Part shown: positions 33,446 through 45,758 of the stretch, one piece after another
Numbering within the stretch: the stretch's first letter is position 1
How the letters are laid out: each line of letters starts with the position of its first letter
From: Candidatus Hodarchaeota archaeon
GTDB taxonomy: Archaea; Asgardarchaeota; Heimdallarchaeia; Hodarchaeales; Hodarchaeaceae
DNA: 64,000 nt
Assembly: GCA_029856365.1 (NCBI GenBank)
Contig: JAHQWW010000003.1
Span: 52,040-116,039 of the forward strand
Direction of reading: 5' to 3'
Made by a program: the position numbers and the translations under genes
The notes under the pieces: generated by a model
Database searches by the model: none
The model's input: the letters and a program-made list of their open reading frames with translations, nothing else
Told to the model about the DNA's origin: nothing

Positions 33446-35608
33446 TTAACTAGATCGAAGGCCAAGTCTTGCAATAAAGGTAGAATAATAATCAAAACAA
33501 TCGACCGATTCTTTTTCATCTAAAGTGATTGAAGAGTGGACAATCCTGTTCCTTAAATTTCGGAAACGAGCGATCTTCCTATCACTAGGTAGGTCGAAAC
33601 CCCGTTTACGAAGGCTAGCAACTTGAAACTGAAAATCAGGTTTAGAATGAGTAGGATCGAATAATAGTTGTTGAAATCGAGTCGTTAGAAGATTTTTGAC
33701 TGACGCATCAGCCTTAATCACAAATAATTCAAAATTATTTTCCTTGAAAGCATGTTTAGCTTGATTCCACAAAACTCGAACATAATTTATGTTTTTCAAT
33801 GCTTGATCGGGATCCAAAATCTGAGGAGGATATTCTTTATTTGAGTTTTCCTTATAGTTTTTTAAAATATAATTCATCCTATTAATGACTTGGCTGTAAC
33901 TAATAAAAGTAGTTACATTTATAAAAATCACTGTGATTACGAGTAATGCTGTTGGAATTGTCAATACAATGAATAATACTGTGAAACTAGGAATATAAAT
34001 TGGGAGAAGATGGGATGTAAAAAGAATATAACCTAGAAGATTCAGAAGATCGTAAATCAGAAATCCAATAAAAATATAGAAAATCCATTCGATTTTTCGG
34101 TGCAATCGTTTTGATATCACAAGTGTTTCTGTTTCAGAGGATTCCATGAAACTAAGTAATCCAAATGTTTTGAATGGGATATTGGTCACTCGGATTAGAA
34201 TTGACTCGTTAGGAACCTCCTTAATATTGAAGATTCCACGAAGATTACTTTCTAAATATTTGTAGGTATCTCCCAACGAAGCAGGAATAGTCCATTGATT
34301 GATTCGAAACCATTTTCCTTTTGAATCTAAATACATTAGGTATGCTGGTAATGCAGCCAGAATAATAATGGAAAGAAGGATCGAGGGGAGAGTCCATATG
34401 AAGGGTTTCGGTAGACGATATTCAAAATGAATGTAGAACAGTCCTTTAGTTTCTGTTTTAGGATAAATTATTAAATAATATTTCCCCTCGTCCAATAACT
34501 TGGTAATATTAATCTCGCCATCTTGGGTTGATTGGTGCTCATATGCAGTATGAATTGGATCTTGAAGTCCCTTGTCTTTGATCTCGATGTGTGCAGAATC
34601 AAGGATTTTATTAATCGTTGGATTTTCTGCAAAAACACGAATGTTAACCTTTGATCTACTTGTATTCACCATAAACCAGAAATAATATTTCTTGAATACA
34701 TAATTATGAACCTCACGAACAGAAATAGTTTGGTTATAAGGTATTTTTCCTGCTGTAAGGTAATTAAAAAAGTTTTGATGAACAGAGGAGGATATATTAT
34801 ACAGCCCTGTATATTGTGTTTTGTGTGAGATTTCAATAATATAGTCATCTTGCTCAGGAGGATTCCAAGAAAAGTTATACAATCCGAATATTTCAGAATG
34901 TTTTTTTTCCACGGCGGTAGGATTTCCTCTTCCCGATTCCTTTGGGTATATTATTACCTCCACTTCTTCAAGTACGTTAGATGTTGTTTCTCTTAAAAAA
35001 ACGGTACAATTTTGGTTTTCCTCCAATGAAACCTTCCAATATTGGATTTCATGATCTATAGTGAAATTAGCAACCCTAAATGATTTATTAAGGGAGATTG
35101 CAGATTCAACGCTATACCCTATACTAGGCATACTAGCCAATATTTCATAAGAAAAATCCCCGCTTTTCTCCACTCTAGTATCATTCACTTGTATTGTCCA
35201 GTTACCTGTTCTTGAAGCAATCCAGGATCCCAAGTATTTATCAGAAGGGAAAAGATTTATTCTTTTTGGATCTAGTGTAGCTTGTGCACCTGAAGGATCA
35301 TAAAGCGTGACTTGAAAATCAGATTTGGAGAAAGGTGGATTAGGATCGATTGAAAAATATACTATTTGTCTTGAATTAACAGTATTAAGAGTCCAATTAT
35401 GCTGTGTAGACTTATTTGTGAAATAATGAGTTTGAGGAATTCCATGCCTCAGTATGGTTACGTTTTGGAAATTTGTCGATTTCTTCACTTTATCAAGTAA
35501 GAACATAGAAGAGGAACTAGTAGACACTGAAGAGAAATGAAAAATTAAGAGATTAAGTGTAATAATTGCAACGAGAAGCATAACATGCTTTTGGGGTATA
35601 GCTTTCAT
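33446..35608 (-). CDS. Signal peptide + three PPC-like beta-sandwich repeats + 3 TM + C-terminal HEPN domain
   Basis: N-terminal hydrophobic leader; DFQVTLYDPSG..GNWTIQV, DDYIIEI and EGKYYLII repeats; TMs at ~aa 405-427, 505-530 and 545-575; FRNLRNRIVH. Confidence 0.75.
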   Translation of the reverse strand: MKAIPQKHVMLLVAIITLNLLIFHFSSVSTSSSSMFLLDKVKKSTNFQNVTILRHGIPQTHYFTNKSTQHNWTLNTVNSRQIVYFSIDPNPPFSKSDFQVTLYDPSGAQATLDPKRINLFPSDKYLGSWIASRTGNWTIQVNDTRVEKSGDFSYEILASMPSIGYSVESAISLNKSFRVANFTIDHEIQYWKVSLEENQNCTVFLRETTSNVLEEVEVIIYPKESGRGNPTAVEKKHSEIFGLYNFSWNPPEQDDYIIEISHKTQYTGLYNISSSVHQNFFNYLTAGKIPYNQTISVREVHNYVFKKYYFWFMVNTSRSKVNIRVFAENPTINKILDSAHIEIKDKGLQDPIHTAYEHQSTQDGEINITKLLDEGKYYLIIYPKTETKGLFYIHFEYRLPKPFIWTLPSILLSIIILAALPAYLMYLDSKGKWFRINQWTIPASLGDTYKYLESNLRGIFNIKEVPNESILIRVTNIPFKTFGLLSFMESSETETLVISKRLHRKIEWIFYIFIGFLIYDLLNLLGYILFTSHLLPIYIPSFTVLFIVLTIPTALLVITVIFINVTTFISYSQVINRMNYILKNYKENSNKEYPPQILDPDQALKNINYVRVLWNQAKHAFKENNFELFVIKADASVKNLLTTRFQQLLFDPTHSKPDFQFQVASLRKRGFDLPSDRKIARFRNLRNRIVHSSITLDEKESVDCFDYYSTFIARLGLRSS

Positions 35609-35900
35609 TGGTTAAACTTCATAAAAATGAGTTAGATTATATTTATAAAATTAATTTGTATTTTAAGTTACCATGTTTCTTTTTAGTAAACTATTTGAGG
35701 CAGATAGGTTGAATGAATAAATCTGTTATTACGAACTGAAAGATTCATCTTTTATATATTTTATATATTACTCATTCCTTTTTGATTAAGTTTATTATTG
35801 AGTGTAGAGAATTATGGTTAATGAACTATAATAAAACTTATTGTCAATAAATACACTACTTGGAGAATTTTAGCATCAACCATTCGGGTTTGGAAAAAAT

Positions 35901-36542
35901 TTGAATCAAAATATTCGGATTTTCAAAAAACGCCTCCAAATTTCTCAAAAAAAGTGGAATACGGTTCAGGGCCATTCATTAAGAACAGTTAATACCATCT
36001 TAACCATCCTTTCGAGATTAAATTTGACTCAACGTCCTGATGCTTTTTCAAAGGCACTTTTAACTAGATTTACTGACATTCCAGAACGGTTAGCTTATCA
36101 TCTTGCAGAATTGATAAATAAAAGTATTATAGATTTATATTCTTATATTGAGCAATTCTCCGATATTGTTCGTGAAATGAGAAAAATAGAGAAAGTTTTT
36201 CGGCAAGATTTTTCTCTTATGGCTAGAAAACAAGTGATAGGAGGAAATGATGCATGGCCACATGATCTCGAGATCATAGAACAAGCTGAAAGAACTTTCC
36301 AAGAAATAATCGATATGTATGAGACTGAGCTTACACTTAGAAAGCAATTAATAAAAGAAATACAAGAATCAATTTCTTTACAGCCCTTAATGATCACTGT
36401 TTACTTGGTTCTCTGGACATCAGAAGTTTATATCGAACCTACTAGGATTCATGAACTCATTGAAGAATTTACACATGTAGAGAAAGTTTGTGAGCGCGTG
36501 TTCCAACAAGATTCTTATAATTCCGTTCCAAAATCTCGATGA
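35901..36542 (+). CDS. C1orf109 (AIRIM/CK2S)/CINP-like all-helical protein
   Basis: QKKW...LSRL...LTRFTDIPERL (C1orf109-like); MYETELTLRKQLIKEI...VYLVLWTSEVYIE (CINP-like). Confidence 0.65.
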   Translation: MNQNIRIFKKRLQISQKKWNTVQGHSLRTVNTILTILSRLNLTQRPDAFSKALLTRFTDIPERLAYHLAELINKSIIDLYSYIEQFSDIVREMRKIEKVFRQDFSLMARKQVIGGNDAWPHDLEIIEQAERTFQEIIDMYETELTLRKQLIKEIQESISLQPLMITVYLVLWTSEVYIEPTRIHELIEEFTHVEKVCERVFQQDSYNSVPKSR

Positions 36543-36560: not shown

Positions 36561-37994
36561 TTAGCTTGCATGGAATTTAGTTAATTTTAGAATGTTATCT
36601 ATTGATCCATTATGAAACCCTTTCACTAGCAAGCCCTGAATTTTATCGTTAACAGCGTATTCGGGTTCACCATTCTCTAAAAATTTCTTTACTAAATTCA
36701 TTGACACAGTTAAACTATCTCGAGCATTCTTTTCCAAACCTGCAGGACAAATTGCAACACCTCGTAATTGAGAATTTTGTGGCCCTACTTGCGATATAAA
36801 GACACATCGTTTATCTCCTGCAGTTAAGTGGTCAGGCGTATGCCCAATTAAGTCTGAACTCATAGATTGAATAGCAGAAAACAAACCTGTGTACAAACAA
36901 ACTTCTTGTCCAGCTGGACGATGACTCGCGAATAAAGGAAGACCACCATCATCGAAAATATATATCTCTGAATCTGAGAATATCTTATTCAACACGTTAA
37001 AACGTTCATCCTCGTCGGAGGGCTCCGATGGTACTGATTCTATAGAATTTCTTTTGATTGAAGTTTCACATGAAGCAAGTGCTGGAACCACAGAAGTTAA
37101 AAAATCATTTGAAGCAGTATTGGGCATAATATTTCCTATTGTGTTAGAGTCTGTCAGAAAAAGAACAACATTATAACCTGAAATGCTAGAATCAACCACA
37201 TTAGAAAAAACTATCTCAAATTCTTTTCCAAATGTGTTTGCTATTTGTTTGGATGTGTTGTTCATGGTTTTAAGATTAAGAGATTTAATTGAAGTCACAG
37301 ATAAAAATATCATCTCCAGACTTTCGAGTTTTTCAGGAAGCGTTGTAACTAGATTCTCACCAACTTGGTCAATAGCGCCGTTTATTGCGTCTTCTAAGAT
37401 CATTGAAGATGAAATTCCATAATACATACATTTAGAGTCGCCAAAAATACGAATTAAATTGGGAAATGAAATTCCAAATCCAGATGACGGTGTAAGACTT
37501 GATATCAAACTATTTAATAGAACTAAAAAATTCTGTCGACCTTTATCGAGAGTACAATCAAAATGAAAATAACATTCTCCAAAAAAATCCCTTTGATTCG
37601 AGTGAAAACCTTTTCCTGTATCAATAAATATAGGAACAATACCAGAAAAATCGATAGAAGCCATGATTGCTCCTAAGACTCTGAAAATTCCTTCTTCGGA
37701 AGAATTGAATATGAATATCAAGAAAAAAGAATTTAAAAGGCTGCATATTTGCGGTATCATCGTTTCAGAGTCAAGAACAACTACTTGATCACATATATTA
37801 GGCGTGAAGGATGTTCCAGTGGTTATAAGTAGCAGAGGTAAGCGAGACTCACTTTTTGTGGCTAAGTAATCTTTCAATACTTCTAATTCAGTTACCAAAT
37901 CCTTGCCAACATATACGATTTTCCCACGAGGTCGGAAATATTCCAATATTGAATTTCTATCAGATCGTGAGCTCAAAGCTGATATCTCTTGCAT
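36561..37994 (-). CDS. Degenerate FtsZ/tubulin-fold protein fused to C-terminal longin-like domain
   Basis: aa ~160-282 follow the FtsZ C-domain pattern; no GGGTG[S/T]G. The C-terminus IYIFDDGGLPLF...LYTGLFSAIQSMSSDL is longin-like. Confidence 0.6.
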   Translation of the reverse strand: MQEISALSSRSDRNSILEYFRPRGKIVYVGKDLVTELEVLKDYLATKSESRLPLLLITTGTSFTPNICDQVVVLDSETMIPQICSLLNSFFLIFIFNSSEEGIFRVLGAIMASIDFSGIVPIFIDTGKGFHSNQRDFFGECYFHFDCTLDKGRQNFLVLLNSLISSLTPSSGFGISFPNLIRIFGDSKCMYYGISSSMILEDAINGAIDQVGENLVTTLPEKLESLEMIFLSVTSIKSLNLKTMNNTSKQIANTFGKEFEIVFSNVVDSSISGYNVVLFLTDSNTIGNIMPNTASNDFLTSVVPALASCETSIKRNSIESVPSEPSDEDERFNVLNKIFSDSEIYIFDDGGLPLFASHRPAGQEVCLYTGLFSAIQSMSSDLIGHTPDHLTAGDKRCVFISQVGPQNSQLRGVAICPAGLEKNARDSLTVSMNLVKKFLENGEPEYAVNDKIQGLLVKGFHNGSIDNILKLTKFHAS

Positions 37995-38279: not shown

Positions 38280-40205
38280 ATGACATTTGAAATCGAAAAA
38301 TGTGAAGGCTGGGGGCGATTGGGACTAGCTTTTGGAAAAGAAGGTTTTATCACACCAAATATAGTAATACCTTGTTTTTTTAACAATAATTCTTCTTCTC
38401 AACAAAATTCTCTTTTGGACTTATTAAAATTCCAGGAAAACAATGCTTCTTTAACCTCTAGAAATAATGTAATAATGGATAACATAGATTTCGACTATTT
38501 TCCCTCATGTTTCATTTATCCTTCTTTACAAATGCAAGGAAAGTCTCTAAAGGAGGTTACTTGCTTTGAGGATATGTTCCCCGTGGACATAAACCAAAGC
38601 TCTAATCTAAAAGCTTCGTATCACCTTATCCCATGGGATTTACCTACAATATATTTGAATCGATATGATAAATACATACAAACTCTTAATAAAATCGAGG
38701 TACCAGAGTTAGATGATAAAATTAAGTTAATGTTAAATGTTCCATTCACACCTGAAATCCTAGAAACAGAGCTCCCACCTCTAAGGCCATCTGTTATTTC
38801 TGTGGTAAGTTTGGGAGATATTTCATCATTATTAACACATCCAAAACTTTTAATCAGATATTTGATTCGTATAAAGTCATGGTTACCTTCTAATAAGATG
38901 CTATACGCCCCTGCAGTTCCTTCAAGTTATATTCCAATTTTGGTGTACCTAGGTATTGATTTATTTGACTTATTAATTACAGAAATGTACTCAGCGAACC
39001 CTGATCAGCAATTGGATCTAATTCTTGAACAGCAGAAGAGTAGAAAGGCTTTTTCACAGATTCTGGATCTCACTAGAAAAGCTATAGAAACCTACAAATT
39101 AAGGGATTTAACAAGAATTTTCGCGAATTCCTATCCTTCTTTAAAGACATTATTAAGAATTAGTGATAAACAGATCCCACTTGAAGAAGGAACCCCGATT
39201 TATGGGTCTCGAACCCTCTACTGCACTGATGAAACTGATTTTACCCGTCCAGAAGTGACACGCTTTCGTGAACGAGTACAAACTCGTTATTTTCCTCCCT
39301 CTCACACTACTGGGATCATTTTCCTCCCTTGCTCCGCTAAAAAGCCATATTCAAAATCAAAATCACATAATATTTTTTCAAAAGTAATTCGTCAAAATTT
39401 GAAGAAAAAACGATTTTCAGTTGGAGAAGTAATTCTAACAAGCCCTTTAGGTGTTGTACCGCGAGAACTTGAGTACTCTTTTCCAGCAGCCCATTATGAT
39501 ATTCCAGTTATAGGAGAATGGAGTCAAATTGAGAAAAAACATCTTGAAGAAGATCTCGTATATTTTTTAAGTAAAATCAAACCTTCTATTCCGCTTGTGG
39601 GATATGTTAAAGGAATTGAACGTGATATATTGAAAAAAGTGTGTAAACTACATAATCGTTCGATATACCTCATAACTCAAGATACAACATCATTATATTC
39701 AAAAGAAGCTCTCAAAGAATTTTCAGCAATTCTCCAAGAGATTTGGCTAAACATTTCCTATAAGCCTAAAATCCCTAATCGACTCATGTTCCTAAGAGCA
39801 ATTGCTGATTTTCAATTCGGAAAAGGGATTGGACAAGTTCTTATTCCTGATCATGTCAAAATTTACGGTCGAAAAGAACTTGGTATCAGAGTTCAGCTTA
39901 ATAACAAACATCTACTCACATTTCGTCCAGAAACAGGTTATCTCACCTTATCCCTTACTGCAGGAAAACTGTTATTAGATTACAGTTGTAACTTAGTGAC
40001 ATTTGACGGTCAGAAGATCATTGGTTCTACAATATTCTCAAAAGCTATAATCATGGCAGATCCAGAGATACGTCAAAATGATGAAGTTCTTATTACAGAT
40101 AGAAATGGGGAATTATTAGCTGTTGGTATTGCACATTTACCAGGAAAACTTTTAGTTGAAATGAAAAGGGGAAAAGGGGTTACTATTCGGCAAAAGGTGA
40201 ATTAA
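38280..40205 (+). CDS. arcS: Archaeosine synthase alpha subunit (ArcS/TgtA2)
   Basis: TGT-like start (GRLG..TPN), LPCSAKKPYSKSKSH, TSPLGVVPRELE..PAAHYDIPV.GEW, C-terminal PUA. Confidence 0.92.
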   Translation: MTFEIEKCEGWGRLGLAFGKEGFITPNIVIPCFFNNNSSSQQNSLLDLLKFQENNASLTSRNNVIMDNIDFDYFPSCFIYPSLQMQGKSLKEVTCFEDMFPVDINQSSNLKASYHLIPWDLPTIYLNRYDKYIQTLNKIEVPELDDKIKLMLNVPFTPEILETELPPLRPSVISVVSLGDISSLLTHPKLLIRYLIRIKSWLPSNKMLYAPAVPSSYIPILVYLGIDLFDLLITEMYSANPDQQLDLILEQQKSRKAFSQILDLTRKAIETYKLRDLTRIFANSYPSLKTLLRISDKQIPLEEGTPIYGSRTLYCTDETDFTRPEVTRFRERVQTRYFPPSHTTGIIFLPCSAKKPYSKSKSHNIFSKVIRQNLKKKRFSVGEVILTSPLGVVPRELEYSFPAAHYDIPVIGEWSQIEKKHLEEDLVYFLSKIKPSIPLVGYVKGIERDILKKVCKLHNRSIYLITQDTTSLYSKEALKEFSAILQEIWLNISYKPKIPNRLMFLRAIADFQFGKGIGQVLIPDHVKIYGRKELGIRVQLNNKHLLTFRPETGYLTLSLTAGKLLLDYSCNLVTFDGQKIIGSTIFSKAIIMADPEIRQNDEVLITDRNGELLAVGIAHLPGKLLVEMKRGKGVTIRQKVN

Positions 40206-41310: not shown

Positions 41311-42471
41311 TTATTTCAAAGAAGAAAGAGTTTTTAACAGCTCATCATTGTCCTCAAAAACATAATCCTTGTCTATTAACTTCTCAAGTTCATATAAAAC
41401 TTTTTTAGATGTTTTATTCAGCTTCTTGGGAAATTTCACGATAATTCCTATGTGCATATCTCCTTTCTGGGAGCTATTTGGATATGGAGCACCTTTATTA
41501 CGAAGTGTTATGATCTTTCCATGTTCTGTTCCTGGATCTATTTTAATTGTTTCTTTCCCATCTATAGTGGGAACTTCAACCTTTGTACCTAGAATAGCAT
41601 CAATAAAACTGATGGGATATTCTATAAGAATATCAGAGCCATTTCTATGGAAAAAAGGATGTTCTTCTACTGAAACAACGAGGTATAGATCTCCTGATGG
41701 TCCTCCTAGTTCTCCTGGCCGGCCTTCTCCCTGAATAACGACTCGCATACCGCTATCTACACCTGCAGGAATTTCAGCATTGACATTTCGAAATTGCTTT
41801 ACCTTTCCAATACCATTACACGTATTACATTCTGCACCTTTGGGAAGACTTTTGCCCTCTCCGTGACATGTTGGGCACGTAGATATATTAACAATTTGAC
41901 CAAACGCGGAACGTTGAATCCTACGGATTTCTCCAGTTCCTTGACATGTGTCACAATTTTTCAATGATTTTCCTTCTTTTACTTTCATACCATGGCAAGT
42001 TGGACACTGTGCCCAATTAGGAACTTTTATTTTCTTTTTTAATCCTTTCATTGCTTCATCAAAGGATATTTCCAGATTTAAACGCACATCCTGTCCTCGT
42101 CTTGCTCTAGGACGTGATGTTCGGGCACGGGAACCCCCACCAAAGGCACTGAATAAATCATCGAAGATTCCAAAGCCACCAAAGAGATCATCAAAACTAA
42201 TCCCAGAGAAATCTCTAAATGGGGTTCCTGACAATCCTTCATGACCAAAACGATCATAAGTAGCACGTTTGTCGTTATCTGAAAGAACTTCAAACGCTTC
42301 AGCTACTTCTTTAAATTTTTCTTCAGCATTTGGATCATCAGGTTTCATGTCAGGATGATATTTCCTAGCGAGATTACGAAATGCCTTCTTTATTGTTTTT
42401 AAATCAGCATCTCTAGAAACTCCCAAGACTTCGTAATAATCTCTTCTAATCTTCTCGCTCAGCACTTTCAC
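41311..42471 (-). CDS. dnaJ: Chaperone DnaJ
   Basis: J-domain with HPD, G/F region, four CxxCxGxG-type repeats. Confidence 0.97.
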
Positions 42472-42504
42472 CTAGCTTGGATTTCTAATTTTTGAAATCT
42501 TTAT

Positions 42505-44370
42505 TTAATCATCGTCTACTATTTCATAATCAACATCAACAACTTCAGAGTCATCGGCTCCACTTGGGGCGCCTTGAAAACCAGACGCACCCGCCTGCTG
42601 AGCTTGGGTCTGAGCCTGTTGAGCTGTTTGTTGTGCATATAGTTTTTGAGCGAGTTCGTGAGTAATTCTTTCTAGTTCCTCACTTTCTTTTTTAATTTCA
42701 GAGACATTACTTCCTGTCAACGCTTTTTTCACGACTTCAATCTGGTTTTCAGCTCTTGAACGTAAATTAGTATCAACTTGGGCTCCTAAATCTTTTATGA
42801 GTTTCTCTGATTGATAAACTAATGAATCTGCTTTATTCCGAGTCTCTGCTTCTTCAAGGCGCTTCTCATCTTCTTCTTCGTAATTAGCTGCCTCATGAAC
42901 CATCCGTTCAAAATCCTTCTTGGTGAGCCCGCTTTCACTCTTTATAGTAATTTTTTGTTCGTTTCCAGTCCCAAGATCCTTTGCAGAGACGTTGACAATC
43001 CCGTTTGCATCGATATCAAAAGTTACTTCTATTTGTGGAACTCCTCGGGGAGCAGGAGGAATACCAACAAGTTGAAACCTACCTAAAGTTATGTTATTTG
43101 ATGCCATTTTACGCTCACCTTGTAATACGTGAACTTCGACAGATGGTTGATTATCTGCTGCTGTAGAGAATATTTGACTTTTTTTAGTGGGAATAGTAGT
43201 ATTTCTTTCAATTAATCTTGTAAAGACTCCGCCTAATGTCTCTATACCAAGTGAAAGAGGAGTTACATCAAGTAGCAACACATCCTTCACGTCTCCCATT
43301 AAGATTCCAGCCTGAATAGCAGCACCTAAAGCAACACACTCATCAGGATTGATTTCTTTAGTTAACTCTTTTTTATAGTAGGTTTTTAACGCAGATTGAA
43401 CAGCAGGTACTCTAGTTGAACCACCAACAAGTAGGATTTTATCAATATCGGAAGGTTGTAGTTTCGCGTCCTGCATTGCTTGGTGAGTAGGCCCCATAGC
43501 AGCCTCGATTAGATCAGCTATCATTATCTCGAATTTAGAACGTGATAATGTAAGGTTTAGATGCTTTGGGCCAGTATTATCAGCATAAATATATGGTAAG
43601 TTAATATCAGCAGATGTTTTTTGTGATAGTTCAATCTTGGCTTGCTCAGCTGCATCCTTTAAACGCTGCAATGCCATTGGATCTTTTGAGAGATCTAATC
43701 CGGTTTGATTCTTGAATTCTTCAACCATCCAATCCATTATTCTTTGATCAAAATCATCCCCTCCTAGGCGATTATTGCCCGAAGTAGCCTTTACCTCGAA
43801 AACACCTTCTGATAACTCCAAAATCGAGACATCAAATGTGCCTCCTCCTAAATCGAAGACCAAAACAGTTTGTTCTTCCTCTTTATCAATTCCATAAGCC
43901 AATGAGGCACTTGTTGGCTCATTGATAATACGAAGTACCTCCATTCCTGCAATTCGTCCAGCATCTTTGGTAGCTTGCCTCTGTGAGTCAGAAAAATAAG
44001 CTGGAACTGTGATAACAGCCTGTTTAATGGATTCTCCTAAGTATGCTTCAGCATCTCGTTTAAGTTTCTGAAGAATCATTGCACTGATCTCTGGTGGTTT
44101 ATACTCTTTTCCATCAATAGTAACAGTATATATAGTACCCATTTCTCTCTTTATGGATCTAATCGTGCGTTCAGGATTTGATACGGCCTGTCTTTTAGCC
44201 AAAAGTCCTACGACTCGTTCTCCTTCCTTTGTAATCGTAACTACCGAAGGAGTGATTCTCTGACCTTCCGCATTTGGAATAATTTTCGCTTTTCCGCCTT
44301 CTATAGTGGCAATAGCAGAAAAAGTCGTTCCTAAATCTATACCAATTGGTTTTGCCATTTTATTTCTCAC
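42505..44370 (-). CDS. dnaK: Chaperone DnaK (likely start 44358)
   Basis: [32 protein letters not shown]. Confidence 0.98.
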
Positions 44371-45010
44371 CTGTCTTTGTTTTAGCTACTACAACTTTTG
44401 TTGGACGTAATACTTTTGAATTCAACAGATATCCAATTTGAGCTTCCTCTAGAATAATATTCTCTTCAGTCTCAGAATCAGGTTTCACAAAAACAACTTC
44501 ATGGAAGTTTGGATCAAACTTCTCCCCAATAGCTGGAATTCTCTCGATTCCTTCGTTCTTTAAAATCGTCTTAAACTGGTTATGAACAGCTTGAAAACCG
44601 TCAAGTATTGATTCGTGCGTTGTTGACTTATTAGTGGATATTTCACTTTCAGCTTTTTCAAAGCTGTCAGCAAGATCGACAAGCTTAAGTAAAAGCCTTT
44701 CATTAGCTTGTTTCACAATTCTAGCTCGTTCTGTTCGTGTCCGTTTCTCTAAATTCTCGTAATCCGCTAATGCACGAAGATATTTCTCATGAGCTTTATT
44801 ATAAAGCTCATCCTTCTCTTCAAGTTGATTGTAAACGCGTTTCAATTCATCTAATAGTTCTCTATTAGTGGCTCCCTCCGTTAGTCCTGAGACTGATTCT
44901 TTCTTGTCCTCAACTTCAGAAGGAGTCTTATCATCTGTTGTTTCGATTTGATAATCAATATCAACAATTTCCTCTTCGCTCTCATGATTATTAGGTTTCT
45001 TTTGGCTCAT
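44360..45010 (-). CDS. grpE: Nucleotide exchange factor GrpE
   Basis: [35 protein letters not shown]. Confidence 0.96.
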
Positions 45011-45020
45011 TGCAAATACC

Positions 45021-45758
45021 TCATTCTGGTTTTACACTCAATGCTGATTCTAGCTTGTTCATTAAGTGAATTCCTTTCTCTGGTAGTAAATTTTTTTCAT
45101 GTAATCTCCGTAGTGACGCTAAAAGTTCAGGTCGCTCAGTTTCAATCTCTTTTTGGATTAAATCAATAGTTATAGGAGCTGAACTTGAGAAAATAGCATA
45201 GGCTAGTTCTCTATCTTTACGGTGTGCGTCACCTTCAAGTTTCATTGAAATCGTTTCATTTAATTCCCCAGTAATAGAGAGCTTCCTGCTTAGCAGAAAC
45301 GTCTCAATAGAACCGAGTTGATCAAGTACAGCATTTAATCTGCTTATTTTTTCATCAAAATTGGCATCTCTTTTTTCTAAAGCTTCCAATACACTTAACG
45401 ATAAATCTTTGCTTAAGGACTCGACATGCTTTAAGGGAAATATTTGTTTCGTATTCGATTCTCCGATTGATATCTCGAAAACGTCAAAATCAAAAGAGTG
45501 TTGACTTAAGGTGATCCTAACAGAAAGATTTTTCGCTATTCGATATATTTTTCTAGAAGGACCAAAAGGTCCCTCAACTGATTCACGAATAATCCAACCT
45601 TTATCCATTAGGCAGTTGAGATGTCTTTGAAGAGATTGTTGTGTTTTCTCCAATTCCTGTGAAAGCTGAAAAAGATATTTCGGCTCATGTGCAATAGATC
45701 TTAAGATATTTCGACGTGTTTCGTTACCAATCAATTCAAAAAATTCTTTTTCATCCAC
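45021..45758 (-). CDS. ArsR-type wHTH regulator heading the grpE-dnaK-dnaJ operon (archaeal heat-shock regulator, COG1777-like)
   Basis: LIGNETRRNIL...PKYLFQLS...RHLNCL...GPSRKIY. Confidence 0.85.
   Translation of the reverse strand: MDEKEFFELIGNETRRNILRSIAHEPKYLFQLSQELEKTQQSLQRHLNCLMDKGWIIRESVEGPFGPSRKIYRIAKNLSVRITLSQHSFDFDVFEISIGESNTKQIFPLKHVESLSKDLSLSVLEALEKRDANFDEKISRLNAVLDQLGSIETFLLSRKLSITGELNETISMKLEGDAHRKDRELAYAIFSSSAPITIDLIQKEIETERPELLASLRRLHEKNLLPEKGIHLMNKLESALSVKPE

Follow-up and report, generated by a model that had tools for sequence, protein, structure and literature searches.

The SPATA5-SPATA5L1 unfoldase, which works in late 60S maturation and in replisome proteostasis and has been linked to neurodevelopmental disease, depends on two essential cofactors, CINP and C1orf109 (AIRIM). 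The locus described here raises the question of whether a member of the same family exists in an archaeon and, if so, whether it represents the state that preceded the two eukaryotic proteins and acts together with an AAA+ ATPase. It lies in a 64,000-nucleotide stretch of DNA from a Candidatus Hodarchaeota archaeon, referred to below as the window. An initial annotation made from the letters alone had described the product as resembling both C1orf109/AIRIM and CINP; the gene is called CINPL in what follows.

The CINPL gene occupies positions 35901..36542 of the plus strand and comprises 213 codons, from a TTG start (35901) to a stop codon ending at 36542, with a product of ∼24 kDa. This assignment draws on the ORF list and its translation, the match to Pfam family PF15011, homologues with an identical start, and an AlphaFold2 model. 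The TTG start was backed by 84 database homologues with the same start position (54 to 98% identity), all of them from Heimdallarchaeota/Hodarchaeales-type Asgard metagenome-assembled genomes. The sequence strings on which the annotation had relied (QKKWNTVQGHSLRTVN..., LLTRFTDIPERL, IIDMYETELTLRKQLIKEI, and VYLVLWTSEVYIE) were all present in the 213-aa ORF. The model, computed from a 25-row alignment, was all-helical, as had been claimed (pLDDT, 88.3; pTM, 0.82), with helices at residues 2-43, 51-56, 60-114, 119-156, 162-174, and 180-206.

The gene is monocistronic, its upstream neighbor being divergent and its downstream neighbor convergent. The former (33446-35608, minus strand) encodes a 720-aa predicted membrane protein, and the latter (36561-37994, minus strand), separated from CINPL by an 18-bp gap, encodes a 477-aa protein; neither product matched a Pfam family. 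The 292-bp divergent intergenic region upstream of CINPL (35609..35900, no strand) is AT rich (23% GC) and, judging from its sequence and composition, presumably contains the promoters of both the CINPL gene and the membrane-protein gene.

Membership in the family was assessed with sequence profiles. CINPL matched PF15011 (CA109-like; in full, "CA109-like, ribosome biogenesis protein C1orf109-like") with 42.5 bits against a curated cutoff of 27 (E=7.8e-11), residues 10-156 of the protein aligning with positions 7-152 of the 161 in the model, and the same model was matched by 21 of 23 diverse relatives. A single-sequence phmmer search of the PDB gave only a marginal match to the C terminus of human CINP (E=0.18), so that profiles were needed. 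With a Hodarchaeales profile, human CINP was reached at E=3.8e-4 (residues 18-181), and with profile A3, built from 23 diverse Asgard sequences only, at E=4.3e-10, with residues 5-178 collinear with 6-179; the latter profile reached AIRIM at E=0.1. A mixed profile, which combined Asgard sequences with two fungal relatives and one C1orf109-type protein (P0107), matched both human proteins collinearly (6.6e-15 for CINP and 6.4e-5 for C1orf109/AIRIM).

The fungal protein P0104, from Piromyces, is orthologous to CINP and matched the human protein at E=2e-8. P0107 belongs to the C1orf109 type, since it scored 103 bits with PF15011 and its sole PDB matches were two AIRIM/C1orf109 chains; its contig is eukaryotic looking, with 47% GC and a long noncoding tail. 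A further CINP-type protein, P0109 from the chytrid Synchytrium microbalum (341 aa), has a C-terminal part that matches a fragment of V-ATPase subunit a, probably because two genes were fused in the gene model. When 1.84 billion representatives were searched exhaustively by HMM with the Hodarchaeales profile, only 27 proteins came back; those with a traceable source were other Asgard proteins, two fungal proteins, and P0107. In this search, the Hodarchaeales-only profile matched P0107 at E=4.3e-6.

Profile-sequence comparison was in agreement with these results. With hhalign, the Asgard profile gave a probability of 98.9% against the fungal CINP orthologue (E=3.8e-17, 174 columns) and 98.0% against the C1orf109-type protein (E=2e-13, 171 columns, residues 17-189), which bore out the resemblance to both proteins. 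The proposal that the protein is a mosaic, with a C1orf109-like N-terminal half and a CINP-like C-terminal half, did not hold, since relatives of both kinds align end to end, across approximately residues 10-190 of CINPL, and the archaeal family is nearer to CINP. The Pfam score does not speak for C1orf109 orthology: the fungal CINP orthologue (42.8 bits) scored like CINPL, far from the 103 bits of the C1orf109 type, so the match is a mark of the superfamily. To judge from these alignments, the archaeal family is homologous to CINP and C1orf109 over their full lengths and closer in sequence to CINP. Because both eukaryotic proteins are homologous to CINPL along its entire length, these two proteins form a pair of paralogues; the similarity of their five-helix architectures has been remarked on in a cryo-electron microscopy paper (PMC12019325).

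Three conserved segments support this relationship. The first is an N-terminal helix motif, KKWNTVQGHSLRTVN (residues 17-31; 35949..35993, plus strand), delineated from alignments of Asgard sequences and from the match of the profile HMM to CINP chains. Its residues W19 and S26 recur in at least 90% of the Asgard sequences, and the segment aligns with KWETLNDAGFTTAN of human CINP. The second is the family signature I-x-x-M-Y-E-x-E-L-x-L-(R/K)-K (residues 136-148; 36306..36344, plus strand), in which I136, M139, and E143 are nearly invariant in the Asgard alignments; it is shared with human CINP (LLEMYRKELLLKR) and weaker in the C1orf109-type protein (IEQMFSAELKLKH). The third is the C-terminal signature Y-L-x-x-W-x-x-E-x-Y-I-E (residues 168-180; 36402..36440, plus strand), recovered in the Asgard, phmmer/hmmsearch, and hhalign alignments, with W172, E175, and Y177 nearly invariant among the Asgard sequences. 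It lies outside the matched portion of the PF15011 model. Human CINP has the same signature (YLSMWLHQPYVES), and the C1orf109-type protein has a degenerate version of it (LALYAAQPNVNG). The combination typical of the C terminus in the CINP group, MY..EL.LK followed by YL..W..(E/Q)PY.E, is thus found in CINPL at residues 136-148 and 168-180.

Overall, CINPL and human CINP (PDB entries 8CIH, 9GWJ_B, 8RHN_C, and 9LGO_J) are collinear over their full lengths, share the same multihelix bundle, and have the motifs KW, MY..EL.LK, and W..(E/Q)PY.E in common, although their identity is only 17 to 18%. Human C1orf109/AIRIM superposes on the CINPL model as well as CINP does, and the match between CINPL and its Pfam family lies above the PF15011 gathering threshold; C1orf109/AIRIM is nevertheless more distant than CINP, as reflected in the E value of 0.1 with the Asgard-only profile and in the degenerate W..EPY.E segment of the C1orf109 type.

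Structure comparison pointed in the same direction. The AlphaFold2 model packs five to six helices into an elongated bundle, the arrangement known from the experimental structures of CINP and AIRIM, and each of the first seven Foldseek matches was either a 55LCC chain or CINP solved by itself. The TM scores were 0.66/0.73 for CINP (8cih_A) and 0.70/0.73 for AIRIM (9lgo_H), with E values of only ∼1e-3. In VIA-align, CINP (8cih_A) ranked first (Z score, 16.3; 177 residues; 2.6 A), and the nearest clusters in an ESM Atlas feature search were eukaryotic C1orf109-like proteins (0.94). However, de novo designed helical bundles reached Z scores of 14 to 15 against the same model, almost as high as that of CINP, so that the fold alone is weak evidence and the case rests on the sequence profiles; structure by itself was accordingly dropped as a proof of homology. 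The reading in which CINPL resembles its relatives only as one long helical bundle resembles another, without homology, can draw on these designed bundles and on the modest Foldseek E values, but it is effectively refuted by the fold-independent statistics (PF15011, 7.8e-11; CINP, 4.3e-10; hhalign, 98 to 99%) and by the conservation and collinearity of the MY..EL.LK and W..EPY.E signatures, and its probability is negligible. Taken together, CINPL almost certainly belongs to the CINP/C1orf109 (PF15011) family.

The distribution of the family was established with a six-frame profile scan of 399 Asgard genomes, 128 of which were positive. CINPL was present in 20 of the 21 genomes of its own genus, in both genomes of the sister family, and in three other Asgard families (17 of 19, 4 of 4, and ∼80 of 89 genomes). 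The same scan found it in none of the 31 genomes of another family of the same class, nor in a family of 135 genomes. Nearly all the positive genomes carry a single copy, the few with two matches being cases of split fragments. The genome studied here, which is 84% complete, gave one match, and 20 other genomes of the genus have one copy each. Identity between Asgard lineages is only 16 to 33%. In one "Promethearchaeota" MAG (prefix ACFFCZ_), two divergent CINPL paralogues were observed, P0101 and P0114, and the pair could reflect either an independent duplication or a mixed bin.

Genes typical of archaea, among them ArcS and DnaK-DnaJ-GrpE, are found on the same contig. The first is represented by an archaeosine-synthase-like protein with DUF5591, TGT_C2, and PUA domains (38280-40205, plus strand), and the second by a bacterial-type GrpE-DnaK-DnaJ chaperone operon (41311-45758, minus strand), which is preceded by a gene for an ArsR/HTH_5-type regulator. 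A 365-aa ORF without a Pfam match comes after the archaeosine-synthase-like gene. The 477-aa protein downstream of CINPL was syntenic in all 11 same-genus loci examined (59 to 86% identity) and does not adjoin CINPL in other Asgard families, and the 720-aa membrane protein was kept upstream in 10 of these 11 loci (36 to 81% identity).

That the family is otherwise eukaryotic, and patchy within the Asgard archaea, might suggest eukaryotic contamination or a recent transfer from a eukaryote to the archaeon. Against this, the GC content of the gene (33.5%) is like that of the window (35.3%), both flanking genes are syntenic in 10 to 11 other same-genus genomes, typical archaeal genes share the contig, and the family occurs across the genus, the sister family, and several other Asgard families at the low identities given above. 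GC content, synteny within the genus, broad Asgard distribution, and single copy together exclude such an origin; this reading is effectively refuted and can be regarded as very improbable. Within Hodarchaeales and several further Asgard lineages, CINPL has been passed on vertically. Thus, its proposed status as a eukaryotic signature protein of Asgard archaea was upheld on both counts, homology to CINP/C1orf109 and nativeness to the genome.

The CINPL of Hodarchaeales is already known, as it was published in a 2024 preprint and in Nature Microbiology in 2026. In [quoted passage not shown] Koestlbacher et al. described Asgard homologues of CINP under the name CINPL (Nat Microbiol 2026;11:747, PMC12962969, Fig. 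4h; bioRxiv 10.1101/2024.07.03.601958). Among prokaryotes, they found them confined to five major Asgard clades, and in their tree the eukaryotic sequences were monophyletic and sister to Hodarchaeales with a UFBOOT value of 99% (PMC12962969; 10.1101/2024.07.03.601958). Both the protein family and the lineage are those studied here, nothing of substance differs, and the distribution obtained here (128 of 399 genomes) matches their five clades. The PF15011 label, for its part, was already precomputed on CINPL proteins in public collections. C1orf109 is not included in the published CINP tree and appears only in the title of a cited reference (PMC12962969), so that the full-length tie to C1orf109/AIRIM and the argument from single copy number are small additions.

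This tie bears on the question of what preceded the eukaryotic pair. A single copy, together with full-length homology to both paralogues, fits an unduplicated ancestor type, and we give roughly even odds to CINPL representing the unduplicated state from which both CINP and C1orf109 arose. The greater distance of C1orf109 can be explained by its faster evolution after duplication. We also built a tree, for which word-indexed searches with P0104 and P0107 supplied four proteins and one protein, respectively; the fungal CINP type was represented in it by three sequences and the C1orf109 type by one, all on very long branches (2.9 to 4.2), and it left C1orf109 unresolved and placed the fungal clade apart from Hodarchaeales.

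The main alternative is that CINPL is orthologous to CINP only, C1orf109 deriving from an older archaeal paralogue that was lost in this lineage. The asymmetry of the Asgard-only profile (4.3e-10 for CINP against 0.1 for AIRIM) is in concordance with it, the published tree treats the family as CINP (PMC12962969; 10.1101/2024.07.03.601958), and the divergent paralogues P0101 and P0114 occur together, under a common locus-tag prefix, in one Asgard MAG. Nearly all of the 128 positive Asgard genomes, however, have one copy, the profile built from Hodarchaeales sequences alone also found the C1orf109-type protein among 1.8 billion proteins (E=4.3e-6), and a faster-evolving C1orf109 after a eukaryotic duplication accounts for the asymmetry equally well. 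We thus consider orthology to CINP alone improbable.

What CINPL does must be approached through its eukaryotic relatives. In the human 55LCC complex, the six N-domains of SPATA5/SPATA5L1 combine with two T-shaped CINP-C1orf109 heterodimers to form a funnel above the AAA+ rings (PMC12019325; PMC11055677). Human CINP contacts the pre-60S particle directly, through GTPBP4 and ES27A, and thereby docks 55LCC, and the tail of RLP24 enters the funnel (PMC12019325). In plants, the OPNR-OAP1 pair sits on CDC48D-CIP111 and acts on RPL24C (PMC12332008). The occurrence of an adaptor pair on the ATPase in both plants and animals indicates that the association is at least as old as their common ancestor. 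The Arabidopsis proteins OPNR-OAP1(-OAP2) (PMC12332008) are the plant counterparts of C1orf109 and CINP; in OPENER there are two or three different adaptor subunits, and both the ATPase partner and the substrate, RPL24C, have been demonstrated, whereas the archaeon has a single gene for a putative adaptor. OPENER attests to the great age, within eukaryotes, of adaptor pairs on Afg2-type ATPases, and it is this that gives meaning to an origin of the adaptor in archaea.

The archaeon differs from the human system in having no paralogous partner and no evident C-terminal extension of GTPBP4 or ES27A. Instead of the paired adaptors of 55LCC and OPENER, a single family member was found in its genome (84% complete). 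No second, Rlp24-like L24e was found in the same genome, which gave one Ribosomal_L24e match (a 72-aa frame), nor a long-tailed Nog1, the only match being a short Nog1 in a 384-aa frame. An Rlp24-like L24e or a long-tailed Nog1 was thus discarded as a candidate substrate or docking site. Residue E147 of CINP, which pairs with R84 of SPATA5 (PMC12019325), appears in the sequence alignment opposite R131 of CINPL.

As for an ATPase, the genome encodes four Cdc48/VAT paralogues with N-D1-D2 architecture, none of them adjacent to CINPL. One is a 1,238-aa protein (G000:C36:52545-56261, locus L031, outside the window) whose D1 AAA domain is split by an intein, and this intein contains a LAGLIDADG homing-endonuclease domain. 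Another, designated C9 after its contig (G000:C9:44587-46893, locus L034), lies on the same contig as CINPL, 41 kb upstream of it and 7 kb before the start of the window, and has an insertion of ∼30 residues in N-domain 2. The remaining two are at G000:C183:3557-5758 and G000:C36:16632-18809. On another contig, a 426-aa protein without an AAA module (G000:C87:5400-6680, locus L035) begins with a domain weakly resembling CDC48_N and also contains a von Willebrand factor A domain.

When two of the paralogues were compared with the PDB, both ranked VAT above p97 and p97 above AFG2A. The C9 paralogue showed the smaller gap between p97 and AFG2A of the two (630 versus 599 bits). Choosing an Afg2-like partner by this ranking was abandoned, since both tested paralogues are VAT/p97-like. 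The N-domain of the C9 paralogue has clear orthologues only in its own order (its own genus plus one sister-family genome), and its weaker matches fall mostly in CINPL-negative families; C9 was therefore rejected as a codistributed partner, because the distribution of its N-domain does not follow that of CINPL. No AAA+ gene adjoins CINPL in any Asgard lineage examined. The gene context is kept only within the genus or family, other Asgard families having different, unrelated housekeeping neighbors, and the neighborhood was likewise set aside as a functional clue, since both neighbors are syntenic within the genus only and differ between families. CINPL is absent from many Cdc48-bearing Asgard lineages (for example, 0 of 31 genomes in one family) and hence is not a general Cdc48 cofactor. 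Cofolding of two copies as a homodimer (42-row alignment) scored 0.01 against a mark of 0.42, which is uninformative either way.

By analogy with eukaryotes, where the CINP- and C1orf109-type paralogues bind the N-domains of Afg2/Cdc48-family ATPases, line the funnel, and act as substrate and docking adaptors (PMC12019325; PMC11055677; PMC12332008), CINPL may serve one of the four Cdc48/VAT-type ATPases as an adaptor or lid, positioned on the ring of its N-domains. With one CINPL gene only, it would sit there as a homo-oligomer or as single copies, and it might steer the unfoldase to particular targets. As an account of the whole locus, a CINP/C1orf109-family member that caps or adapts the N-domain ring of a Cdc48/VAT ATPase is the best explanation, with a chance only a little short of even; the AAA+-adaptor mechanism taken on its own is a tentative proposal, for which we would put the chances at two in five.

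The main rival is that CINPL is a helical scaffold that works without an AAA+ ATPase, perhaps by binding ribosomal or replication components, attachment to an Afg2-type ATPase being a eukaryotic trait only. Neither genomic context nor phyletic distribution links CINPL to any Cdc48 paralogue, and its neighbors elsewhere in the Asgard archaea, in a context that is not conserved, are housekeeping genes of translation and RNA, such as those for Trp/Tyr- and Met-tRNA synthetases, an RNA cyclase, and a SAM synthetase. Moreover, the contacts of human CINP itself with the pre-60S particle through GTPBP4 and ES27A (PMC12019325) are direct, so that target binding could be the older role. On the other hand, in animals and plants the family is known only within AAA+ complexes, which dates the association to the last eukaryotic common ancestor, and the C-terminal segment of GTPBP4 and ES27A have no evident counterpart here. 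With no partner substantiated, and no evident equivalents of the substrate and docking elements used in eukaryotes, the scaffold is a serious rival, though on balance we deem it unlikely.

The adaptor reading can be joined to the question of ancestry. It is conceivable, though doubtful, that the single-copy Asgard protein was the ancestor type of CINP and C1orf109 and already capped the N-domain ring of a Cdc48/VAT ATPase as a homo-oligomer. If so, the adaptor-capped funnel of 55LCC and OPENER would be older than eukaryotes, and subfunctionalization would later have given rise to the heterodimer and to the divergence of SPATA5 from SPATA5L1. A recent preprint still describes the SPATA5-SPATA5L1 complex as eumetazoan specific; the Asgard homologue and the plant OPENER make the adaptor lineage much older than that, which was known already for CINP. 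For its part, CINPL offers a simple system, with one gene only, for studying the role of the adaptor before the eukaryotic duplication.
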